25,834 nt of DNA from assembly GCA_041650355.1 (NCBI GenBank), contig JBAZLI010000003.1, forward strand, positions 1-25,834. The letters run 5' to 3'. Positions 3,632 through 21,255 of the stretch are shown here, piece by piece (the first letter of the stretch is position 1; each line of letters begins with the position of its first letter). Position numbers and translations under genes: made by a program. This DNA comes from Candidatus Micrarchaeia archaeon. GTDB taxonomy: Archaea; Micrarchaeota; Micrarchaeia; Anstonellales; Bilamarchaeaceae. The notes under the pieces were generated by a model. That model worked only from the letters and a program-made list of their open reading frames with translations. It ran no database searches and was not told the DNA's origin.

Positions 3632-5248
3632 GCGCATGAGCATCCACACGATTTCCACGTGCGAGTCCTTCATGCCGACGCGCCTGAAAGCAGAGCGCAG
3701 GAGCTCTATGTCCTCCTTTCCGAAAGCCCTGAGGAGCGAGAGGAAGACGAAATAAATGGCGCAGCAAACGAGGAACAGAATTCCCAGGACTCCGAACTGC
3801 CATACCTTCTGGAAAGCCGGGCTGGAAGCTATTTCAGCCGGAAGAGGGACGCTGAACCCGAATAAAACCGCGAAATAATCCTTCAGCAGGAGGAAAGCGC
3901 CCAGGGCCAGGAGGGCGGCAAGGAAGGGGCGCACGCTGCCGGCTAGGAAAGTGCCGCCCGCGAACTTTCTGGAATAGTAAATCAGCAGGAGCGAAACCGA
4001 GATAAGGGCGATTGCTGAAGCGAACGCCGCGCCCTCCATCCCGTAGCCGGGTATGAGCAGGACATTGAGAACCACGTTGAGGAGCGCTCCGAACACCGCG
4101 ATTCCCAGTTCCACTTTCATCAGCCTCATCGCCGCAAGGACCGAACTGTGAACCGTGCTCGCGGTCCTGAGGAACACCCCTATTGTGAAGATGGAGAGCA
4201 CAAGCGCCCCGGATGCATACGCAGAGCCGTAGAAAAGCACGAGTATCTCTTTCGGGAGCGATATGAGCAGCATCGCCGCCGGAACCATGAGTATGAGCAC
4301 CCAGCGCGTCGCGAACGTCGAGCTTTCAAGCATCTCTTTCTTCTTGCCCTTCGCATAAAGCTCGGATATTATCGGAAGGAATATGTTGCCTAGCGCGGAC
4401 GGGAATATGGAGACCACCCCTCCGAGCGTGGTAGCCATTGCGTACACCGCTATTACGCCCGCGGCCTTTGAGGGGTCTATCATGTATCCCAGCATTATCC
4501 TGTCGCTCGACGAGATGAGGATCCACATCGCTGTTATGACCGAGAGCACGGCTCCGAAAGGGACCGCCTCCTTCAGCGCCTCCACCTGGTCTTTCAAGCT
4601 GACTTCCGAGGCTATGCCGCTCTCATCAATCATCTTCTTCACGTACCAGAAAGAGAGGAGGGCCGCGAGCACGAACGAAGCCACATAAGCAGCGGTGAGG
4701 CTCAGCACGCTGGAGCCGATGAAAACGAAAAGCAACACAGTGAGCACGAGCTTGAGGGCGTGCTGGCTGTTGGAAAGCAGGACCTGCGTCCGCACGTTCT
4801 TCATGCTCAGGAGCGAGTAGCTGTTCAGGTTGAGCAGGCTGTTCACGAGCACGAAGAACGCGAGCACCTGCATTACTATTTCTAGGTCCGGATTCCCGGC
4901 GCTCTCTGCGATGTAGGGCGCCCCTATCATTATGAGAATGCCCATGAGCACCGAAAAGAAAGTGACGAACCAGTATGCGCCCCTCAGCAGCGCATATGCC
5001 TTCTTTTTCTCGCCTTTCCCCATATAGTACGGTATGAAGCGTGTGAAGGCCGCGAACAGTCCCAGATCCCCGAAAATCCCGAGTATGCTTATGAAGCCCA
5101 GTCCGAGGTAGAAAGTGCCTATGTCCTGCTGGCTGAACAGGCGCGTGGACACCATAAGGTAAACGAAAGAGATGATTTTGAAGAACAGGTTGCCGACAAG
5201 GCCCCACACAGTGCCCTTCACGACCGTTTTTTGTTCCTCGAGCGCCAT
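3623..5248 (-). CDS. wzx: polysaccharide/oligosaccharide flippase of the MOP superfamily (Wzx-like)
   Basis: The 541-aa product is strongly hydrophobic throughout, with about 12-14 predicted TM segments. The N-terminal VKGTVWGLVGNLFFKIISFVYLMVSTRLFSQQDIGTFYL is typical of the polysaccharide biosynthesis protein (Wzx/RfbX) family. It is convergent with gmhB, with a 9-nt overlap of the 3' ends. Confidence 0.75.
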   Translation of the reverse strand: MALEEQKTVVKGTVWGLVGNLFFKIISFVYLMVSTRLFSQQDIGTFYLGLGFISILGIFGDLGLFAAFTRFIPYYMGKGEKKKAYALLRGAYWFVTFFSVLMGILIMIGAPYIAESAGNPDLEIVMQVLAFFVLVNSLLNLNSYSLLSMKNVRTQVLLSNSQHALKLVLTVLLFVFIGSSVLSLTAAYVASFVLAALLSFWYVKKMIDESGIASEVSLKDQVEALKEAVPFGAVLSVITAMWILISSSDRIMLGYMIDPSKAAGVIAVYAMATTLGGVVSIFPSALGNIFLPIISELYAKGKKKEMLESSTFATRWVLILMVPAAMLLISLPKEILVLFYGSAYASGALVLSIFTIGVFLRTASTVHSSVLAAMRLMKVELGIAVFGALLNVVLNVLLIPGYGMEGAAFASAIALISVSLLLIYYSRKFAGGTFLAGSVRPFLAALLALGAFLLLKDYFAVLFGFSVPLPAEIASSPAFQKVWQFGVLGILFLVCCAIYFVFLSLLRAFGKEDIELLRSAFRRVGMKDSHVEIVWMLMRSE

Positions 5249-5329
5249 CGCACTACCTTTTTACAATCTGGTTTCACTTCTCCACCTCTATTTATTAAAT
5301 TTCTTCAATATTTATTTCCGGTCATTCTC
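5249..5329. promoter_or_regulatory. divergent promoter region for wzx(-) and gatE(+)
   Basis: An AT-rich spacer with tttattaaatttcttcaatatttattt about 25 nt upstream of the gatE ATG. Confidence 0.45.
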
Positions 5330-7102
5330 ATGAAGCTAGGCCTTGAAATCCACCAGCGGCTGGATACGCACAAGCTTTTCTGCAGCTGCCCAGCGAAAGA
5401 GGGCAGAGGCGAGCCCAAAAAAGTCGTGCGCACGCTCCACCCGGTTTACAGCGAGATGGGCGAGGTGGACAAAACATCCCTTGCGGAAGCCGAGAGGGAG
5501 CAGACTTTCGAATACCTGTTTTACGATGACTGCTGCTGCCTCGTGGAGCTTGATGAGGAGCCGCCGCATCCGCTTAACGCGGAAGCCCTGCGCATCGGGC
5601 TTGAAATCGCGCTCCAGCTCAAATCCAGGCCCGTGGACGAAGTGCACGTGATGCGCAAAACAGTGATAGACGGGAGCAACACGTCCGGATTCCAGCGCAC
5701 AGCGGTAATCGCGATGGGCGGGAAGGTGGAAAGCAAGAACGGCGACGTGCGCGTGAGCACAGTTGCAATAGAAGAGGAGAGCGCGGGCATAGTTGAGAAA
5801 AAAGGGGGGAGAGCGATATATTCACTCGATAGATTAGGAATTCCGCTGGTCGAGATAGGGACCGAGCCGGACATAAAAAGCCCCGAGCACCTCAGGGAAA
5901 TTGCCGAGAAAATAGGGCTCATGCTCAGGGCTACGGGGAAGGTCATGCGCGGCCTCGGAACGATAAGGCAGGACGTGAACGTGAGTGTGGAAGGCGGCGC
6001 GCGGGTTGAGATAAAAGGCGCCCAGGACTTGAAATCCATTGCGCTTATTGCGGAAAACGAGGCGAAAAGGCAGGAAGCCCTGCTTGCGACAATAAGGGAA
6101 GTTGGGAAAAGATTCGGCGGAAAAGCCGAGTTGAGCGGAAAAATCCTGGACGCGAGCGATTTGTTCAAAGGGACTCAGGCGAAGCTTCTGAAAGCCGGAC
6201 TGGATTCAGGGCAGAAAGTGCTTGGAATGAAGCTGGAAAGGCACGCAGGGCTGCTCGGAAAAGAGATAAACCTGGGCAGGAGGTACGGAACCGAGCTGAG
6301 CGACTATGCGAAAACCGCTGGCGTGAAAGGGCTGATACACAGCGACGAGGACATGGAAAAATACGGAATTGCGGATAAAGAGCATGCCGATATTTGCAGG
6401 ATGCTCAAAATGGAAAAAGAGGATGCGTTCGTGCTTGTGGTCGCGCAGGAAGGCGTTGCAAAAAAAGCCCTGGAAAAAGCGCTTGCGCGGGCAAGGATGG
6501 ATTTCATCCCGAAGGAAACCAGGAAAGCCAACGCGGACGGCACCAGCTCGTTCATGCGCCCTCTTGCAGGGCGCGCGAGGCTTTATCCCGAAACCGACAT
6601 CCCGCCGGTGCGCGTAAGCGCGGAACTGCTCGATGAAACAAGGTCCGGGGCTTCCGAGAGCCTGGAGCAGAAGAGGGAGAAGCTTCTCAAGCTGCTCAAC
6701 AAGGATATGGCAGAACGGATGCTGCGCTCCAGGAACCTGAATGTTTTCGAAAAGCTGGTTGAGATGAAAATCGAGCCTACGCTTGCAGCCGCGACTCTGG
6801 AGGATACGCTCACAATGCTCAGGAGGGAGGGCGTGGAAGTAGGCGGGGAGCATGTGCTCGCGCTTTTCGCAGAGTACCAGAAGGGGAGCTTCGTGAAGGC
6901 CGCGATACCGAATTTGCTGAAGGAAACCGCAAGAGGAAAAAGCTTGGAAAATGCCCTTGACGAGAAGCAGCTGCGGAAAATAAGCGGAGCGGAACTAAGG
7001 AAAATAATAAGGGAAAACAGCAAAAGCATGGCCGCGATAATGGCCAAGTACCGCCTGCGCGTGGATTCAAAGGAGGTTGCGGAGCTGATAAAGTCTATGT
7101 AA
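5330..7102 (+). CDS. gatE: glutamyl-tRNA(Gln) amidotransferase subunit E (archaeal GatE)
   Basis: The 590-aa product starts MKLGLEIHQRLDTHKLFCSCP, matching the GatE N-terminus. It has an inserted AspRS-like domain and a C-terminal YqeY-like tail (AELRKIIRENSKSMAAIMAKY). The ORF track starts earlier at 5231, but that part overlaps the wzx start and promoter. The ATG at 5330 is verified. Confidence 0.9.
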   Translation: MKLGLEIHQRLDTHKLFCSCPAKEGRGEPKKVVRTLHPVYSEMGEVDKTSLAEAEREQTFEYLFYDDCCCLVELDEEPPHPLNAEALRIGLEIALQLKSRPVDEVHVMRKTVIDGSNTSGFQRTAVIAMGGKVESKNGDVRVSTVAIEEESAGIVEKKGGRAIYSLDRLGIPLVEIGTEPDIKSPEHLREIAEKIGLMLRATGKVMRGLGTIRQDVNVSVEGGARVEIKGAQDLKSIALIAENEAKRQEALLATIREVGKRFGGKAELSGKILDASDLFKGTQAKLLKAGLDSGQKVLGMKLERHAGLLGKEINLGRRYGTELSDYAKTAGVKGLIHSDEDMEKYGIADKEHADICRMLKMEKEDAFVLVVAQEGVAKKALEKALARARMDFIPKETRKANADGTSSFMRPLAGRARLYPETDIPPVRVSAELLDETRSGASESLEQKREKLLKLLNKDMAERMLRSRNLNVFEKLVEMKIEPTLAAATLEDTLTMLRREGVEVGGEHVLALFAEYQKGSFVKAAIPNLLKETARGKSLENALDEKQLRKISGAELRKIIRENSKSMAAIMAKYRLRVDSKEVAELIKSM

Positions 7103-8498: not shown

Positions 8499-9824
8499 AT
8501 GTACTCTTCAAAGATTTCCGCGATGCTGAAGAAGGCAGGGATTTCCATAGGCGACCTAGTGAGAATTGAAAAAGCCGGCCACACCCACGAAGGCATACTC
8601 ATGCCCCGCGCAGGAGAGAGCGATGAGCTGGTGCTCAAGCTCGAAACCGGCTACAACATAGGGATAACTCTTGAAGGCGCGAAGATGGTCCTGATAGAAA
8701 AAACTCCAAAGAAACCCGAACCCAGCGAGAAATCCCATCCTCGCGGCGAAATCGCGATTCTCGGCTGCGGAGGCACCATCTCTTCGAAAGTGGACTACAA
8801 GACCGGCGCAGTTTCCCCTGCATTGAGCCCTGAGGACATTTCCAAATCCTTTCCGCTCCTTAATTCAATAACCTCTTTTCACACTCTTTCCCTTTTCCAG
8901 CTCCTCTCCGAAGACATGACAGTGGGGCACTGGAAGAAAGCCGCAGAAGCTGTCGCAGAAGAAATCAAGCAGGGCTCCAAGGGCGTCGTGCTCATGCACG
9001 GAACGGACACGATGCATTACACTTCAGCCGCGCTGAGCTTCGCGCTCCAAAATCTCCCGGTTCCAGTAGTGTTCGTGGGCTCCCAGCGTTCTGCGGACCG
9101 GCCGAGCAGCGACAACGAGCAGAACCTCCTGAACGCGGCACTCGTTGCGAAATCCGGCATCGCGCACGCGGGGATATGCATGCACGCTAATTCCAGCGAC
9201 GATTTCTCCTATTTCCATTTGGGAACAAAGGCGAGGAAAATGCACACTTCCCGCAGGGACGCGTTCAAGTCCATAAACTCCCTGCCGCTCGCAAAAGCAG
9301 ACTACAAGACAGGCAAAGTCGAGCCGCTCATCCAGGATTACAGCAGGCGCGACGAGAAAAGAAAGCTTGAGATGCACAACCACTTCTCTGATAAAGTGGG
9401 AATGCTTTACATGCACCCTGGCATAGACCCTAAACTTGTAGAGGCGTTCTCCGAATATGACGGTTTGGTGCTCGTGGGGACCGGCCTGGGACACATGCCT
9501 GCAAACCTCGGGAACGACAAAATGAGCAAAAGCCTTGTTCCCGCAGTGAAATCACTTATTGATTCCGGAATCCCGACCGTGATGAGCTCCCAGACGATTT
9601 ACGGGAGGATAAACATGGACATCTACTCGACAGGCCGCGCGCTCCAGCAGGCGGGGGTCATAGGCAACGGCGCTGACTGGACTCCTGAAACCGCGTTCGT
9701 CAAATTGAGCTGGGTTCTCGGGAAAGAGAAGAAGATGGAAAAAGTGAAGGAGCTGATGATGAAAAACATCGCGGGGGAAATAAGCGAGCGCACGAATTAC
9801 GAGGAAAAATTCATTGATATCTAA
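8499..9824 (+). CDS. gatD: glutamyl-tRNA(Gln) amidotransferase subunit D (archaeal GatD, asparaginase-like)
   Basis: The 441-aa product has an N-terminal GDLVRIEKAGHTHEGILMP beta-barrel domain. An asparaginase domain follows, with ILGCGGTISS, GVVLMHGTDTMHYTSAALSF and VVFVGSQRSADRPSSD. A TATA-like ttttaaagc sits about 22 nt upstream of the ATG, so the transcript is probably leaderless. Confidence 0.9.
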   Translation: MYSSKISAMLKKAGISIGDLVRIEKAGHTHEGILMPRAGESDELVLKLETGYNIGITLEGAKMVLIEKTPKKPEPSEKSHPRGEIAILGCGGTISSKVDYKTGAVSPALSPEDISKSFPLLNSITSFHTLSLFQLLSEDMTVGHWKKAAEAVAEEIKQGSKGVVLMHGTDTMHYTSAALSFALQNLPVPVVFVGSQRSADRPSSDNEQNLLNAALVAKSGIAHAGICMHANSSDDFSYFHLGTKARKMHTSRRDAFKSINSLPLAKADYKTGKVEPLIQDYSRRDEKRKLEMHNHFSDKVGMLYMHPGIDPKLVEAFSEYDGLVLVGTGLGHMPANLGNDKMSKSLVPAVKSLIDSGIPTVMSSQTIYGRINMDIYSTGRALQQAGVIGNGADWTPETAFVKLSWVLGKEKKMEKVKELMMKNIAGEISERTNYEEKFIDI

Positions 9825-13926: not shown

Positions 13927-14136
13927 GCGCCCGCCCCCTAATCCTGAAAAGAAAAAAGTGCAGGAGTCATTTTGGCTGTTGCCAAAAGTTCCTTCATTTT
14001 AAAAATAAAATGCAGGGAGCAAGATTGTCAGCTTGCTGGCAATTTTTGGTCGCCAGACCAAAGCTTTTGAACTTGCGCAGCTGCTAGAGCACCAGACCCT
14101 GAATCTGGCACGTTTGACCGGGCTCCGCCATCCCTG

Positions 14137-14200
14137 CACCATATCCCTTTCTTTTTAGAAAAAAGAAAGGTCTGAGGTCTTTACCCCAAAGAAAAACTAT
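14137..14200. repeat. intergenic repeat element, copy A (pyrimidine/purine hairpin plus CTGAGG-ACCCC-AAAGAAAAAC module)
   Basis: An 11-bp perfect hairpin CCTTTCTTTTT-ag-AAAAAGAAAGG at 14146-14169 is followed by tCTGAGGtcTTT-ACCCC-AAAGAAAAAC. The same module recurs at 15434-15474, and a truncated copy at 15523-15539. Confidence 0.6.
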
Positions 14201-14218: not shown

Positions 14219-14376
14219 TAGCCCCGACCGGATTTTCTCTACTCCCGCTGCCGATAAGCGAACGGGGGTATCCAGGAATAAGGGGGTTCCTTTCAAACAA
14301 AATAAAACCCCCTGTCTTTCGAACCGGTGTCACAAGGTCCAGAGCCTCGTATCCTTGACCGCTAGACTACGGGGCT
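14219..14376 (-). tRNA. tRNA-Gln (anticodon CUG) with a putative ~85-nt intron in the T-loop
   Basis: The minus strand reads 5' AGCCCCG UA GUCU AGCGGUCAA GGAU A CGAGG CUCUGGA CCUUG UGAC ACCGG UUCGAA. This runs through the acceptor stem, D-arm (with G.U pairs as in Pyrococcus tRNA-Gln), anticodon arm with loop CU-CUG-GA, and T-stem with a UUCGAA T-loop start. The T-arm does not close locally. About 85 nt further 3' lies UCCGGUCGGGGCCU, which is the complement of both the T-stem and 6 of 7 acceptor positions, plus a discriminator. Exon 1 is 14318-14376, the intron is about 14233-14317, and exon 2 is 14219-14232. Position 1:72 would be A.C. Confidence 0.55.
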
Positions 14377-14466
14377 ATTGCAGATGACTTACTCTGCAAA
14401 AGTTTTTATATATCCCGCCCCCATCTACAATAAGCAGCAATTACGATTTGTATTGGAGGTGTTCGA
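14377..14466. promoter_or_regulatory. bidirectional promoter region for tRNA-Gln(-) and the stomatin gene(+)
   Basis: An AT-rich core tttttatatatc at 14403-14414 serves both directions. On the minus strand atatataaaaac lies about 27-37 nt upstream of the tRNA 5' end. On the plus strand, a GGAGGTG Shine-Dalgarno motif sits 6 nt before the ATG at 14467. A hairpin GCAGATGACTTACTCTGC abuts the tRNA 5' end. Confidence 0.5.
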
Positions 14467-15284: not shown

Positions 15285-15356
15285 GGGCTGGTAGATCAAC
15301 GGCAGATCGCATCGTTCGCATCGATGAGGCTGAGGGTTCAAATCCCTCCCAGTCCA
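15285..15356 (+). tRNA. tRNA-Ala (anticodon CGC)
   Basis: GGGCUGG UA GAUC AACGGCA GAUC G CAUCG UUCGCAU CGAUG AGGCU GAGGG UUCAAAU CCCUC CCAGUCC A. The cloverleaf is intact, with the G3:U70 wobble that is the universal alanine identity element. The anticodon loop is UU-CGC-AU and the T-loop is TTCAAAT. There is no encoded CCA. A TATA-like attcctattatac lies about 20-30 nt upstream. Confidence 0.85.
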
Positions 15357-18824: not shown

Positions 18825-19043
18825 ATGGTGATGTGTATGCTCAAAACCACAGTGCTTCTCCGCGAAGACGTCTACGAGATGCTGGTGCGGGAGTTCGGGA
18901 AAAGGAACGTCTCCAAAGGCATAAACGAGTACCTGTTCGAGCATATGTTCACTGAGAATCAGAAAGACATGTTCGCCAAGGACAAATGGCTGCAGAAAGC
19001 AGGAACCAGGGACCTGAGGGACCACCATGAGCGTGACCTTTGA
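18825..19043 (+). CDS. vapB: putative antitoxin (VapB-like small DNA-binding protein)
   Basis: A 72-aa ORF lies immediately upstream of a PIN-domain gene and overlaps it by 17 nt. The overlap is classic type II TA architecture. The TATA-like catataaatc is at 18804-18813. The start may instead be the ATG at 18837 (MLKTTVLL), giving a leaderless transcript. Confidence 0.5.
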   Translation: MVMCMLKTTVLLREDVYEMLVREFGKRNVSKGINEYLFEHMFTENQKDMFAKDKWLQKAGTRDLRDHHERDL

Positions 19044-19395
19044 CAGCTATGCCTGGATAGAATATTTTTCCGGGAGCACGAAAGGGGAACGCGTCAGGCG
19101 CATTGTGGATGACACAGGGCAGATATTCACGCCTTCCATCTGCCTGATGGAAATAGTTTCAAAATACATCCGTGAGGGAAAACCTTTCGCGGACAGGGCG
19201 GATTTCATCATGTCCCGCAGCAGTATAATAGACATCACCAAGGAGATTTCCCTGCTTGCGGCCGAGCTCAAGGAGAAAGAGAAGCTGCCTGGAGTGGATG
19301 CCCTAATATACGCGTGCGCCCGGTCCAGGAGTTCCAACCTGCTCACCGGAGACCAGCATTTCCGCGGCAAGGACGGAATAGATTTCCTGGATTGA
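19027..19395 (+). CDS. vapC: PIN-domain ribonuclease toxin (VapC family)
   Basis: The 122-aa product starts MSVTFDSYAWIEYFSG. An acidic residue at position 6 begins the PIN fold. It has ICLMEIVSKY and a C-terminal GDQHF, which are PIN catalytic acidic positions. Confidence 0.7.
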   Translation: MSVTFDSYAWIEYFSGSTKGERVRRIVDDTGQIFTPSICLMEIVSKYIREGKPFADRADFIMSRSSIIDITKEISLLAAELKEKEKLPGVDALIYACARSRSSNLLTGDQHFRGKDGIDFLD

Positions 19396-19956: not shown

Positions 19957-20643
19957 CTATTCCTTCACGACAGTTCCGTTGTGCGATTTTCCTTCAATGG
20001 CTTTCTTCACGTCCTCAAGGTTCCTTCCATTCACGAAATGGGCCTCGATTTTGGAGCGCGCGATGAGCTTGCACGCCAGCAAATCGAACACGAAGTTCTC
20101 CCCTGCCCTGCGCGAATCCCCCTTTGTCGCCAATTCAATCAGCTCCGCGTACTTCATCCTCTGGAACTTCTTAGCCTTGGGGTTGTTCCTCGGGTTCGAA
20201 TCGTAAATCCCATCCACGTTGCTCATGTTCACGAGCCTTTTCGCGTGCAGCGCCTCTGCAAGCAAAGCGGAATCAGTGTCCGTGCTTATCCCGGGGATGG
20301 TCCCGCCCATGACCACGATCCTGTGGTCCATCGCAGCGTTGCGCGCCTCGTTGAAATTCGTGATCACTTTGGGGTGCGCGTGCCCTGCGAGCGCGCCTCT
20401 AATCAGCGCGGCGTTCTGCCTGGTGCTCACAATCGCTATCTCGTCCGCCTCGAATTCGTTCGAGCCCAGCTCGCGCGCCGCCTGCGCGTAAATCCTCGCG
20501 GTCCTCCCGCCCCCTGTGACAATCCCGAAATTCAGCCTGCTTTCAGCAAGAACCTTCACCAGCTTCTTCACGAATTCCGCGTCCGGCGTGCCTTCGGGGT
20601 TTATTATGCCCCCTCCAAGAGAAAGAACTATCCATTCAGCCAT
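19957..20643 (-). CDS. pyrH: uridylate (UMP) kinase, archaeal type
   Basis: The 228-aa product has LSLGGGII, IVTGGGRTARIY, IVVMGGTIPGISTDTDSALLAE and NVDGIYDSNP, which are amino-acid kinase family signatures. Confidence 0.9.
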   Translation of the reverse strand: MAEWIVLSLGGGIINPEGTPDAEFVKKLVKVLAESRLNFGIVTGGGRTARIYAQAARELGSNEFEADEIAIVSTRQNAALIRGALAGHAHPKVITNFNEARNAAMDHRIVVMGGTIPGISTDTDSALLAEALHAKRLVNMSNVDGIYDSNPRNNPKAKKFQRMKYAELIELATKGDSRRAGENFVFDLLACKLIARSKIEAHFVNGRNLEDVKKAIEGKSHNGTVVKE

Positions 20644-20712
20644 GCAATCACGCGTTTATTTGTTCGCCCATATTTTAAACGTTTGCCGGCCTTAACCTAT
20701 CCAGGTGTTTTG
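20644..20712. promoter_or_regulatory. divergent promoter between pyrH(-) and the translin-like gene(+)
   Basis: cccatattttaaacgtttgcc. A TATA-like motif lies about 30 nt upstream of the ATG at 20713. Confidence 0.4.
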
Positions 20713-21255
20713 ATGCTTGACATAAAGGACATAGAAAAAGCGCTGATAAAAAAAGAGGCAGTTCTCGACGAGCTGATAAGGAAGAACAGGGAGATAGTGC
20801 GCACCACCGCGAATTCCATCAAGGAGATGCACGCCGGAAAGCCCGCAGAGGCGAAGAAGCTCCTGGATTCAGCGGAGAAGGAGATGCGCGCCCTCTCGGC
20901 TTTGGTTTCCGAACACGGCATGGACTCCCACCACATAATGCAGGAGTACGCCGAGGCGCGAATACTTCTATTTGCGATAGAGCGGAAAGAGCTTCCTTCC
21001 AGCACCGACCTTGGCGTAACTCCTGAATCCTACCTGAGCGGGCTCCTGGACTGCATGGGCGAGCTCAAGCGCGAGATGTACGAGTCCCTGCGGAAAGGGA
21101 AGCGCGAGGACGCTGAGTACTTCTTCGGGCTCATGGAAAAAATCTACGACGAGCTTTTGCCGCTCAAGTTCTCGTCCGCGCTCCTTCCGGATTTCAGGAG
21201 GAAGCAGGACGTCGCGAGGATGCAGATAGAACAAGCCAGAGGCGAACTTTTATAA
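20713..21255 (+). CDS. all-alpha protein, translin-family candidate
   Basis: The 180-aa product is predicted to be all-helical. SGLLDCMGELKREMYESLRKG and EYFFGLMEKIYDELL resemble translin/TRAX helices. The assignment is by recall only. The ORF-track start at 19981 is an artefact overlapping pyrH. Confidence 0.35.
   Translation: MLDIKDIEKALIKKEAVLDELIRKNREIVRTTANSIKEMHAGKPAEAKKLLDSAEKEMRALSALVSEHGMDSHHIMQEYAEARILLFAIERKELPSSTDLGVTPESYLSGLLDCMGELKREMYESLRKGKREDAEYFFGLMEKIYDELLPLKFSSALLPDFRRKQDVARMQIEQARGELL

Follow-up and report, generated by a model that had tools for sequence, protein, structure and literature searches.

The window, meaning the whole 25,834-nt stretch of DNA analysed here, carries on its minus strand two neighbouring tRNA genes, tRNA-Gln(CUG) and tRNA-Leu(CAG), each of which is interrupted in the T-loop, and on its plus strand the genes for GatE and GatD. 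The main features are as follows:

14403..14413, minus strand: TATA-like box ATATATAAAAA, ending 27 nt upstream of tRNA-Gln position 1
14318..14376, minus strand: tRNA-Gln(CUG) exon 1, positions 1-59 (59 nt; equal to nt 1-59 of the intronless L084 gene)
14233..14317, minus strand: 85-nt insert in tRNA-Gln(CUG), an intron at T-loop position 59/60
14219..14232, minus strand: tRNA-Gln(CUG) exon 2 (14 nt), comprising U60, the T-stem 3′ strand CCGGU, the acceptor 3′ strand CGGGGCU and the discriminator A73
14066..14137, minus strand: tRNA-Leu(CAG) exon 1, through T-loop A59 (72 nt)
14025..14065, minus strand: tRNA-Leu(CAG) intron at 59/60 (41 nt; orthologous to the L060 intron)
14011..14024, minus strand: tRNA-Leu(CAG) exon 2, U60 to A73 (14 nt)
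8499..9824, plus strand: GatD (Pfam GatD_N, Asparaginase, Asparaginase_C)
5231..7102, plus strand: GatE (Pfam GatB_N, GAD, GatB_Yqey)

The host is a DPANN archaeon of the Micrarchaeota. It is placed in the Micrarchaeia because the GatD encoded in the window matches, at 100% identity, a protein with the annotation 'MAG: Candidatus Micrarchaeia archaeon', with the next matches lying at approximately 73% identity or lower and coming from Micrarchaeota-type MAGs. GatD is a subunit of the amidotransferase that turns Glu-tRNA-Gln into Gln-tRNA-Gln, and the Pfam domains of the two proteins bear out an earlier reading of this DNA (hereafter the first-pass annotation), which had assigned both GatD and GatE to the window. 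Adenylosuccinate lyase, NurA, Pth2, dCTP deaminase, the proteasome alpha subunit and SecDF are encoded here as well, and Pfam scans revealed no EndA domain among the window ORFs. In addition, a PIN-domain ORF (19027-19395, plus strand) lies just 5′ of a 424-aa ORF (19981-21255, plus strand) whose only match is to the Translin family, in its C-terminal part (residues 320-417).

Exons, spliced product and detection of the tRNA genes

Read on the minus strand from 14376, exon 1 of tRNA-Gln(CUG) comprises the acceptor 5′ strand, the D-arm, the anticodon arm with CUG, the variable loop, the T-stem 5′ strand and U54-A59 (AGCCCCG-UA-GUCU-AGCGGUCAA-GGAU-A-CGAGG-CUCUGGA-CCUUG-UGAC-ACCGG-UUCGAA), and exon 2 supplies the remainder of the molecule; CCA is not encoded in the gene. 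The first-pass annotation had placed a tRNA-Gln(CUG) with a T-loop intron of about 85 nt at 14219-14376, and these coordinates proved exact. In the predicted product, ...GGUUCGAA is joined to UCCGGUCGGGGCUA(CCA), and the spliced exons form a 73-mer that is identical at 73/73 positions to the intronless tRNA-Gln(CUG) gene of another Micrarchaeota MAG (L084, 2291-2363), a sequence to which the Rfam tRNA model assigns 62.3 bits (threshold 29). Across these 73 nt of exon sequence there are no differences from the genes of L084, L060 and L145 and one difference from those of L002, L019 and L110. The claim that the downstream 3′ half could hardly have arisen by chance was likewise upheld, as the expected number of exact matches to the 14-nt 3′ exon in a stretch of about 300 nt is approximately 1e-6.

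The acceptor end, in contrast, had been misread. An A1·C72 mismatch and only six of seven acceptor pairs had been reported on the basis of a 3′ end written as ...GGGGCCU, whereas the sequence reads CGGGGCUA and the acceptor stem consists of seven out of seven Watson-Crick pairs, including A1-U72. The first pair A1-U72 of tRNA-Gln is recognised by GatDE (PMC2943598). Because this pair is present, the acceptor end is that of a usual archaeal tRNA-Gln and has no bearing on GatDE recognition, so that the relevance to GatDE once attached to the mismatch falls away.

In the raw window, neither ARAGORN nor Rfam at its gathering threshold detected the unspliced tRNA-Gln locus or the tRNA-Leu(CAG) locus (14137-14011), and the sole tRNA found by these tools was tRNA-Ala(CGC) at 15285-15356; a permissive Rfam search added a 15.5-bit partial match to the 5′ exon of tRNA-Gln. 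The ARAGORN check proposed in the first-pass annotation therefore missed the locus as it stands in the window, but called tRNA-Gln(CUG) once the 73-mer had been spliced in silico. The misses at both genes are attributable to limits of the tools and not to gene absence. A simple structural scan covering the whole window on both strands, which permitted inserts and asked for an acceptor stem of 7 bp, for U8 and A14, for a GG in the D-loop, for GTTCRA and for a T-stem of 5 bp directly adjoining the acceptor 3′ strand, returned exactly three loci, every one of them a tRNA, compared with 0.125 matches in each shuffled window. As standard tRNA finders overlook both tRNA-Gln(CUG) and tRNA-Leu(CAG), the MAG would seem to lack the two, which is the 'incomplete tRNA set' problem of DPANN genomes; according to Kaneta et al. 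(2018), such incomplete sets point to undetected disrupted genes (PMC5829648).

The order of tRNA-Gln(CUG) followed by tRNA-Leu(CAG) is also found in relatives. The interrupted tRNA-Leu(CAG) had gone unnoticed in the first-pass annotation. The spliced tRNA-Leu(CAG) of the window is identical at 86/86 positions to the intronless L145 gene, and in the MFE structure of its precursor both the acceptor stem and the T-stem are retained, along with a helix that closes the intron (AGCUU/AAGCU). Its 41-nt intron occurs in an independent Logan contig (L144) as well and is clearly orthologous to its counterpart in the L060 Leu gene, with a similarity of z=8.9. Between the two genes lies a perfect A/T-rich inverted repeat (CCCTTTCTTTT-TTCTA-AAAAGAAAGGG, 14145-14171), partly kept in L060, which could be a terminator or a processing hairpin; this repeat also gave rise to a spurious mir-4679 match.

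Upstream of tRNA-Gln, the TATA-like box sits inside a motif (ATATAAAAAC.TTTGCAG) that has been kept upstream of the orthologues in L060, L002, L017, L019 and L084, and the gene is followed by a T-run (14196-14188). As sequence signals, the two would be consistent with an expressed tRNA-Gln gene.

Intron junction, predicted motif and recurrence at 59/60

Within its A run, the insert tolerates three junctions (57/58, 58/59 and 59/60), the mature product being unchanged by the choice, and bulge geometry favours 59/60 over the other two. The bulge-helix-bulge register was fixed from the canonical 37/38 intron (32 nt) of the orthologous L002 gene, in which loop positions 32-35 pair with intron positions n-5..n-2, with 36, 37 and i1 making up one bulge and n-1, n and 38 the other. 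Transposed to 59/60, this register has positions 54-57 paired with n-5..n-2 and leaves n-1, n and U60 bulged beside the T-stem. The 85-nt intron ends in ...GUAG-AGAA-AA, and its G-A-A (14237-14235) pairs with C56-U55-U54, giving a helix H composed of U54-A, U55-A and C56-G and then a G57·A mismatch (3/4 pairs), with the 3′ splice site in a 3-nt bulge formed by the intron A-A (14234-14233) and U60 (14232). The interior of the intron holds two hairpins, the GGGGG/CCCCC hairpin that the first-pass annotation had already described (14313-14281) and a second one at 14270-14240.

Folding with RNAfold reproduced this arrangement in two settings. For the T-arm and intron alone, the unconstrained fold contains the T-stem (5 bp), the 3-nt bulge and a 3-bp H at -34.8 kcal/mol, and an identical T-stem, bulge and 3-bp H form in the complete precursor when constraints are limited to the cloverleaf stems. 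In either setting, the 5′ site (between G57 A58 A59 and A G A C) lies in a multiloop, in a 7-nt segment ahead of the two intron hairpins. The unconstrained global MFE of the whole precursor (-63.3 kcal/mol) is a non-cloverleaf structure with exon 2 paired to the intron, and is more stable than the cloverleaf by 8.7 kcal/mol; motif evidence was taken from the constrained and local folds and not from this one. The junction folding suggested in the first-pass annotation thus does give a BHB-like motif in its relaxed form, with an exon helix h, a 3-nt bulge containing the splice site and an adjoining H, and on this model the intron is predicted to belong to the relaxed hBH (BHL) class of archaeal endonuclease-type introns. 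The strict hBHBh′ (3-4-3) form was ruled out, as H is 3 bp plus G57·A, the 5′ site is located in a loop, and beside it no h′ helix (i2.. with n-6..) formed in the precursor folds. An H with three pairs has a chance of about 1 in 16 by itself, and a perfect 4-bp H about 1 in 32; the 3/4 pairs in tRNA-Gln are weak alone and fit the strong pattern across the T-loop intron set. Other intron or RNA classes were also considered and rejected, namely a group I or group II intron (such introns have a catalytic core hundreds of nt in length, whereas the insert is 85 nt, with no Rfam match even at E<=10) and a C/D-box sRNA inside the intron (no UGAUGA or CUGA box by eye and no Rfam match).

The T-loop intron set derives from a survey in which one genome per GTDB species was scanned with the first 20 nt of tRNA-Gln, yielding 108 stretches, nearly all of them DPANN-labelled. 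Introns of the 109 tRNA-Gln genes with the shared 5′ 20-mer were located through spliced alignment, with the intronless genes serving as the profile, and the layouts were as follows:

No intron: 41 of 109 tRNA-Gln genes
D-loop only: 23 of 109
37/38 only: 13 of 109
D-loop + 37/38: 12 of 109
D-loop + 37/38 + T-loop: 6 of 109
T-loop only: 5 of 109
37/38 + T-loop: 5 of 109
D-loop + T-loop: 1 of 109
Other sites: 3 of 109

Among these 109 related genes, window included, all T-loop introns (17/17) are compatible with 59/60, a position that also suits L145 and two ARMAN-2 cases. In the 16 T-loop introns besides that of the window, H has 4/4 pairs in 11, 3/4 in four and 2/4 in one; a perfect H is typically UUCG/CGAA and then AG/U (the slash in AG/U marking the splice site), and local MFE folds mostly show a stem, a 3-nt bulge and a helix as in the window. 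A 59/60 intron is present in 18 of the 110 DPANN-type tRNA-Gln genes examined. The first-pass annotation had held such an intron to be informative about lineage and endonuclease type, which stands, given the DPANN host and a motif class cleaved by the ARMAN-2 epsilon2 EndA, but it had overrated the rarity of introns at this site.

Several surveyed loci have other peculiarities. In L117, L123, L129 and L136, the first 16 nt of tRNA-Gln(CUG) are not tRNA-like and the remainder, including the 3′ acceptor strand, is intact, which probably reflects either an intron close to position 16/17 or a 5′ piece that is split off. L032 contains an orphan 5′ tRNA-Gln fragment (1244-1263) with no 3′ end within 400 nt, and L088 contains the 5′ 20-mer and then, 152 nt later, a complete tRNA-Gln(UUG); these two may be multi-intron, split or duplicated genes. 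The taxonomy of L004, L008, L011, L016 and others, binchicken MAGs labelled 'uncultured Methanosarcinales archaeon', looks doubtful, their T-arm (GGCAG/CTGCC) and intron layouts being those of Woesearchaeota-labelled contigs.

If the 85-nt insertion had inactivated the gene, the locus would be a decaying tRNA pseudogene and another tRNA-Gln would decode CAG. This explanation would suit a locus that ARAGORN and Rfam leave uncalled, with an imperfect H and a global MFE that is not a cloverleaf. It is nevertheless very unlikely, as all 73 exon positions match intact orthologues despite divergence in the flanking spacers, the promoter motif has been retained, the insertion coincides exactly with the recurrent 59/60 site and has its 3-nt bulge in register, and the neighbouring tRNA-Leu is of like design and conserved in L060.

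An artefact of assembly or binning, in which metagenome misassembly put 85 nt into the tRNA, was considered in the light of Logan contigs from SRR8542065. Two of them, from the same organism, flank the Gln intron, L001 ending at tRNA-Gln exon nt 30 and L144 ending in tRNA-Leu exon 1, and among the Logan contigs retrieved there was no independent contig across the Gln intron. However, both contigs break off inside tRNA exons, in which the related genomes here do not differ, and sequence common to co-occurring genomes makes assembly graphs branch; the contig ends fit such branching at shared tRNA exons, or strain heterogeneity in intron content. Moreover, a chimera is unlikely to hit 59/60 precisely, spare both exons and create the bulge-helix register, and the Leu intron is confirmed by L144. 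Misassembly is thus extremely improbable. The locus is very probably a functional Micrarchaeota tRNA-Gln(CUG) gene with a single non-canonical 85-nt archaeal intron at 59/60.

Known archaeal introns and a proposed splicing pathway

T-loop introns have been documented in Micrarchaeota before, with experimental confirmation, and the tRNA-Gln locus is a further example in the expected lineage. In ARMAN-2 (Candidatus Micrarchaeum acidiphilum), Fujishima et al. (2011) described a pre-tRNA-Cys(GCA) with a 13-nt intron at 59/60 and a relaxed hBH/BHL motif, which shares phylum, intron position and motif class with the window tRNA-Gln (PMC3239211). The ARMAN-2 intron is cleaved in vitro, whereas the Gln intron of the window is considerably longer (85 nt), folds into two hairpins, has an H of three pairs plus a G·A mismatch and is known from sequence and folding. 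A second ARMAN-2 precursor, pre-tRNA-Pro(GGG), contains two T-loop introns, at 53/54 and 59/60 (PMC3239211). Although it likewise represents a 59/60 T-loop intron in Micrarchaeota, it combines a strict hBHBh′ motif with the additional intron, unlike the single intron and relaxed motif of the window tRNA-Gln.

Canonical 37/38 hBHBh′ introns, such as that of the L002 tRNA-Gln, offer a geometric counterpart in which 37/38 in loop 32-38 corresponds to 59/60 in loop 54-60. The two arrangements are alike in their stem, in a 4-position helix between loop and intron tail, and in a 3-nt bulge cut after the second base; the window intron differs in lying in the T-loop, in having its 5′ site in a loop and in the absence of an adjacent h′.

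On this basis, a processing pathway may be proposed. The tRNA-Gln gene would be transcribed from the conserved TATA-box promoter. In the folded precursor, the T-stem (h) is predicted to stack on the 3-nt bulge A-A/U60 containing the 3′ splice site, with the short helix H (U54-A, U55-A, C56-G and then the G57·A mismatch) beyond the bulge and the 5′ site A59/A in a 7-nt loop before the two intron hairpins. This relaxed hBH (BHL) arrangement would be geometrically equivalent to a 37/38 intron shifted to the other 7-nt loop. Both sites would then be cut by the splicing endonuclease, the phylum's known enzyme being, according to the literature, a broad-specificity three-unit epsilon2 EndA. An RtcB-type ligase would presumably join the exons, after which CCA would be added, and the 73-nt tRNA would be glutamylated and subsequently amidated by the GatDE encoded 4-9 kb away.

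Published enzymology bears on the cutting step. The three-unit epsilon2 endonuclease of ARMAN-2 cleaves a 59/60 relaxed-motif precursor in vitro (PMC3239211), an epsilon2 EndA with the L2 (ASL) loop is also found in Mancarchaeum (Kaneta et al. 2018; PMC5829648), and efficient cutting of relaxed motifs is limited to (alpha-beta)2 and epsilon2 enzymes (PMC6379350). Since the 5′ site lies in a loop with no adjacent h′, cutting of the tRNA-Gln intron by the strict-specificity endonucleases alpha4 and alpha′2 is not expected (PMC3239211, PMC6379350). With two clean 59/60 cases, the window extends the evidence for tolerance of relaxed-motif introns in Micrarchaeota, and the presence of relaxed-motif introns here predicts a broad-specificity endonuclease in this genome.

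Intron layouts, shared families and possible turnover

In the window and its close relatives, the same mature tRNA-Gln(CUG) is encoded by genes with five intron layouts:

None: L084, L110 (L110 being 72/73 identical)
37/38 only: L017, L019
D-loop + 37/38: L002 (syntenic: GatE-ADSL-GatD-NurA-...-HAD)
37/38 + 59/60: L060, L145
59/60 only: the window

L060 is the closest relative at the locus. Its alignment with the window holds in the promoter, in the spacer between Gln and Leu, in the intron-bearing Leu gene and in the trailer, but fails across the Gln T-loop intron. The Gln T-loop intron of L060 is similar to the Leu intron of the window (z=7.0, with 0/500 shuffles as similar) and also to the Leu intron of L060 and the Gln intron of L145 (z=3.6 in each comparison). 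Accordingly, a family of introns with the pattern A[CG]CTTTGG...CAAAA.TTGCC...CAA is found at 59/60 in both tRNA-Gln (L060, L145) and tRNA-Leu (L060, window), at the following loci besides the window:

L060, 3039-3191: locus bearing the shared intron family
L060, 3414-3539: locus bearing the shared intron family
L145, 15984-16114, minus strand: locus bearing the shared intron family

This sharing suggests that introns were duplicated or transposed from one tRNA gene to its neighbour, accompanied by compensatory changes in the helix that closes them.

The Gln gene of the window is without the 37/38 intron and has an unrelated 85-nt intron at 59/60, although its flanks and the Leu intron align with L060. 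Comparison with every other T-loop, 37/38 or D-loop intron in the data set gave no convincing homology to the 85-nt intron, and an apparent collinearity with the 37/38 intron of L002 (ACAGG..CCTGGAT..GGAGT) lacked significance. There was no second copy in the window or in 140 loci, and no match in Rfam, phage genomes or viral contigs. In metagenome scans, a 28-mer across the uninterrupted anticodon arm had no match and a 23-mer retrieved 32 loci from other lineages with canonical 37/38 introns only, neither scan yielding a closer relative of the intron. As these searches found no orthologue, the predicted motif has no covariation support.

Archaeal integrative elements target the part of tRNA genes from the T-loop to the 3′ end, a classic integration site. 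The position of the insert in this 3′ part, together with the lack of relationship between the window Gln intron and the intron family at the same site in its closest relatives, would be in keeping with a mobile-element remnant or an integrase att-site scar. Such an origin is highly unlikely, however, given that neither a duplicated 3′ tRNA segment nor a target-site duplication is present, that the insert has no further copy in the window or in 140 loci and no match in phage or viral collections, that 85 nt is far below coding length, and that the bulge-helix register suits endonuclease splicing.

When the insert is read as an endonuclease-type intron of a functional gene, an analogy can be drawn with the Thermoproteales, in which multiple and non-canonical tRNA introns as well as intron transposition have reportedly been described (Sugahara 2008, Fujishima 2010). 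Members of this order have recurrent non-canonical sites including 59/60, up to three introns per gene, and related introns in different tRNA genes (PMC3239211, PMC4090602). The likeness between the Gln T-loop intron of L060 and the Leu T-loop introns of the window and L060 recalls the last of these features. The systems differ in that Thermoproteales belong to TACK and have an (alpha-beta)2 enzyme, whereas the window comes from a DPANN archaeon with presumably an epsilon2 enzyme and its Gln intron is without a detectable relative. By analogy, the five layouts, the 59/60 family shared by Gln and Leu and the unrelated window intron would resemble the Thermoproteales reports.

It is possible, and is proposed here tentatively, that the locus captures active, site-specific tRNA-intron turnover in Micrarchaeota. 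If true, introns would have been inserted or replaced at the T-loop site repeatedly, for instance through reversal of the endonuclease and ligase reactions or through recombination of one tRNA gene with another, and DPANN would join TACK as a second archaeal superphylum with such turnover. Together with the window, the relatives provide a compact comparative series for the gain, loss and movement of archaeal tRNA introns, with five layouts on identical exons and an intron family common to two genes.

One further element was noted in the Gln-Leu spacer of L060 (3325-3400), a 76-nt tRNA-Leu-like sequence (GCAGGGGTGGCGG...AAGCCCCTGCA) with 7-bp acceptor-like ends. The window has no such insertion, and the sequence may represent a degenerate copy of a tRNA.
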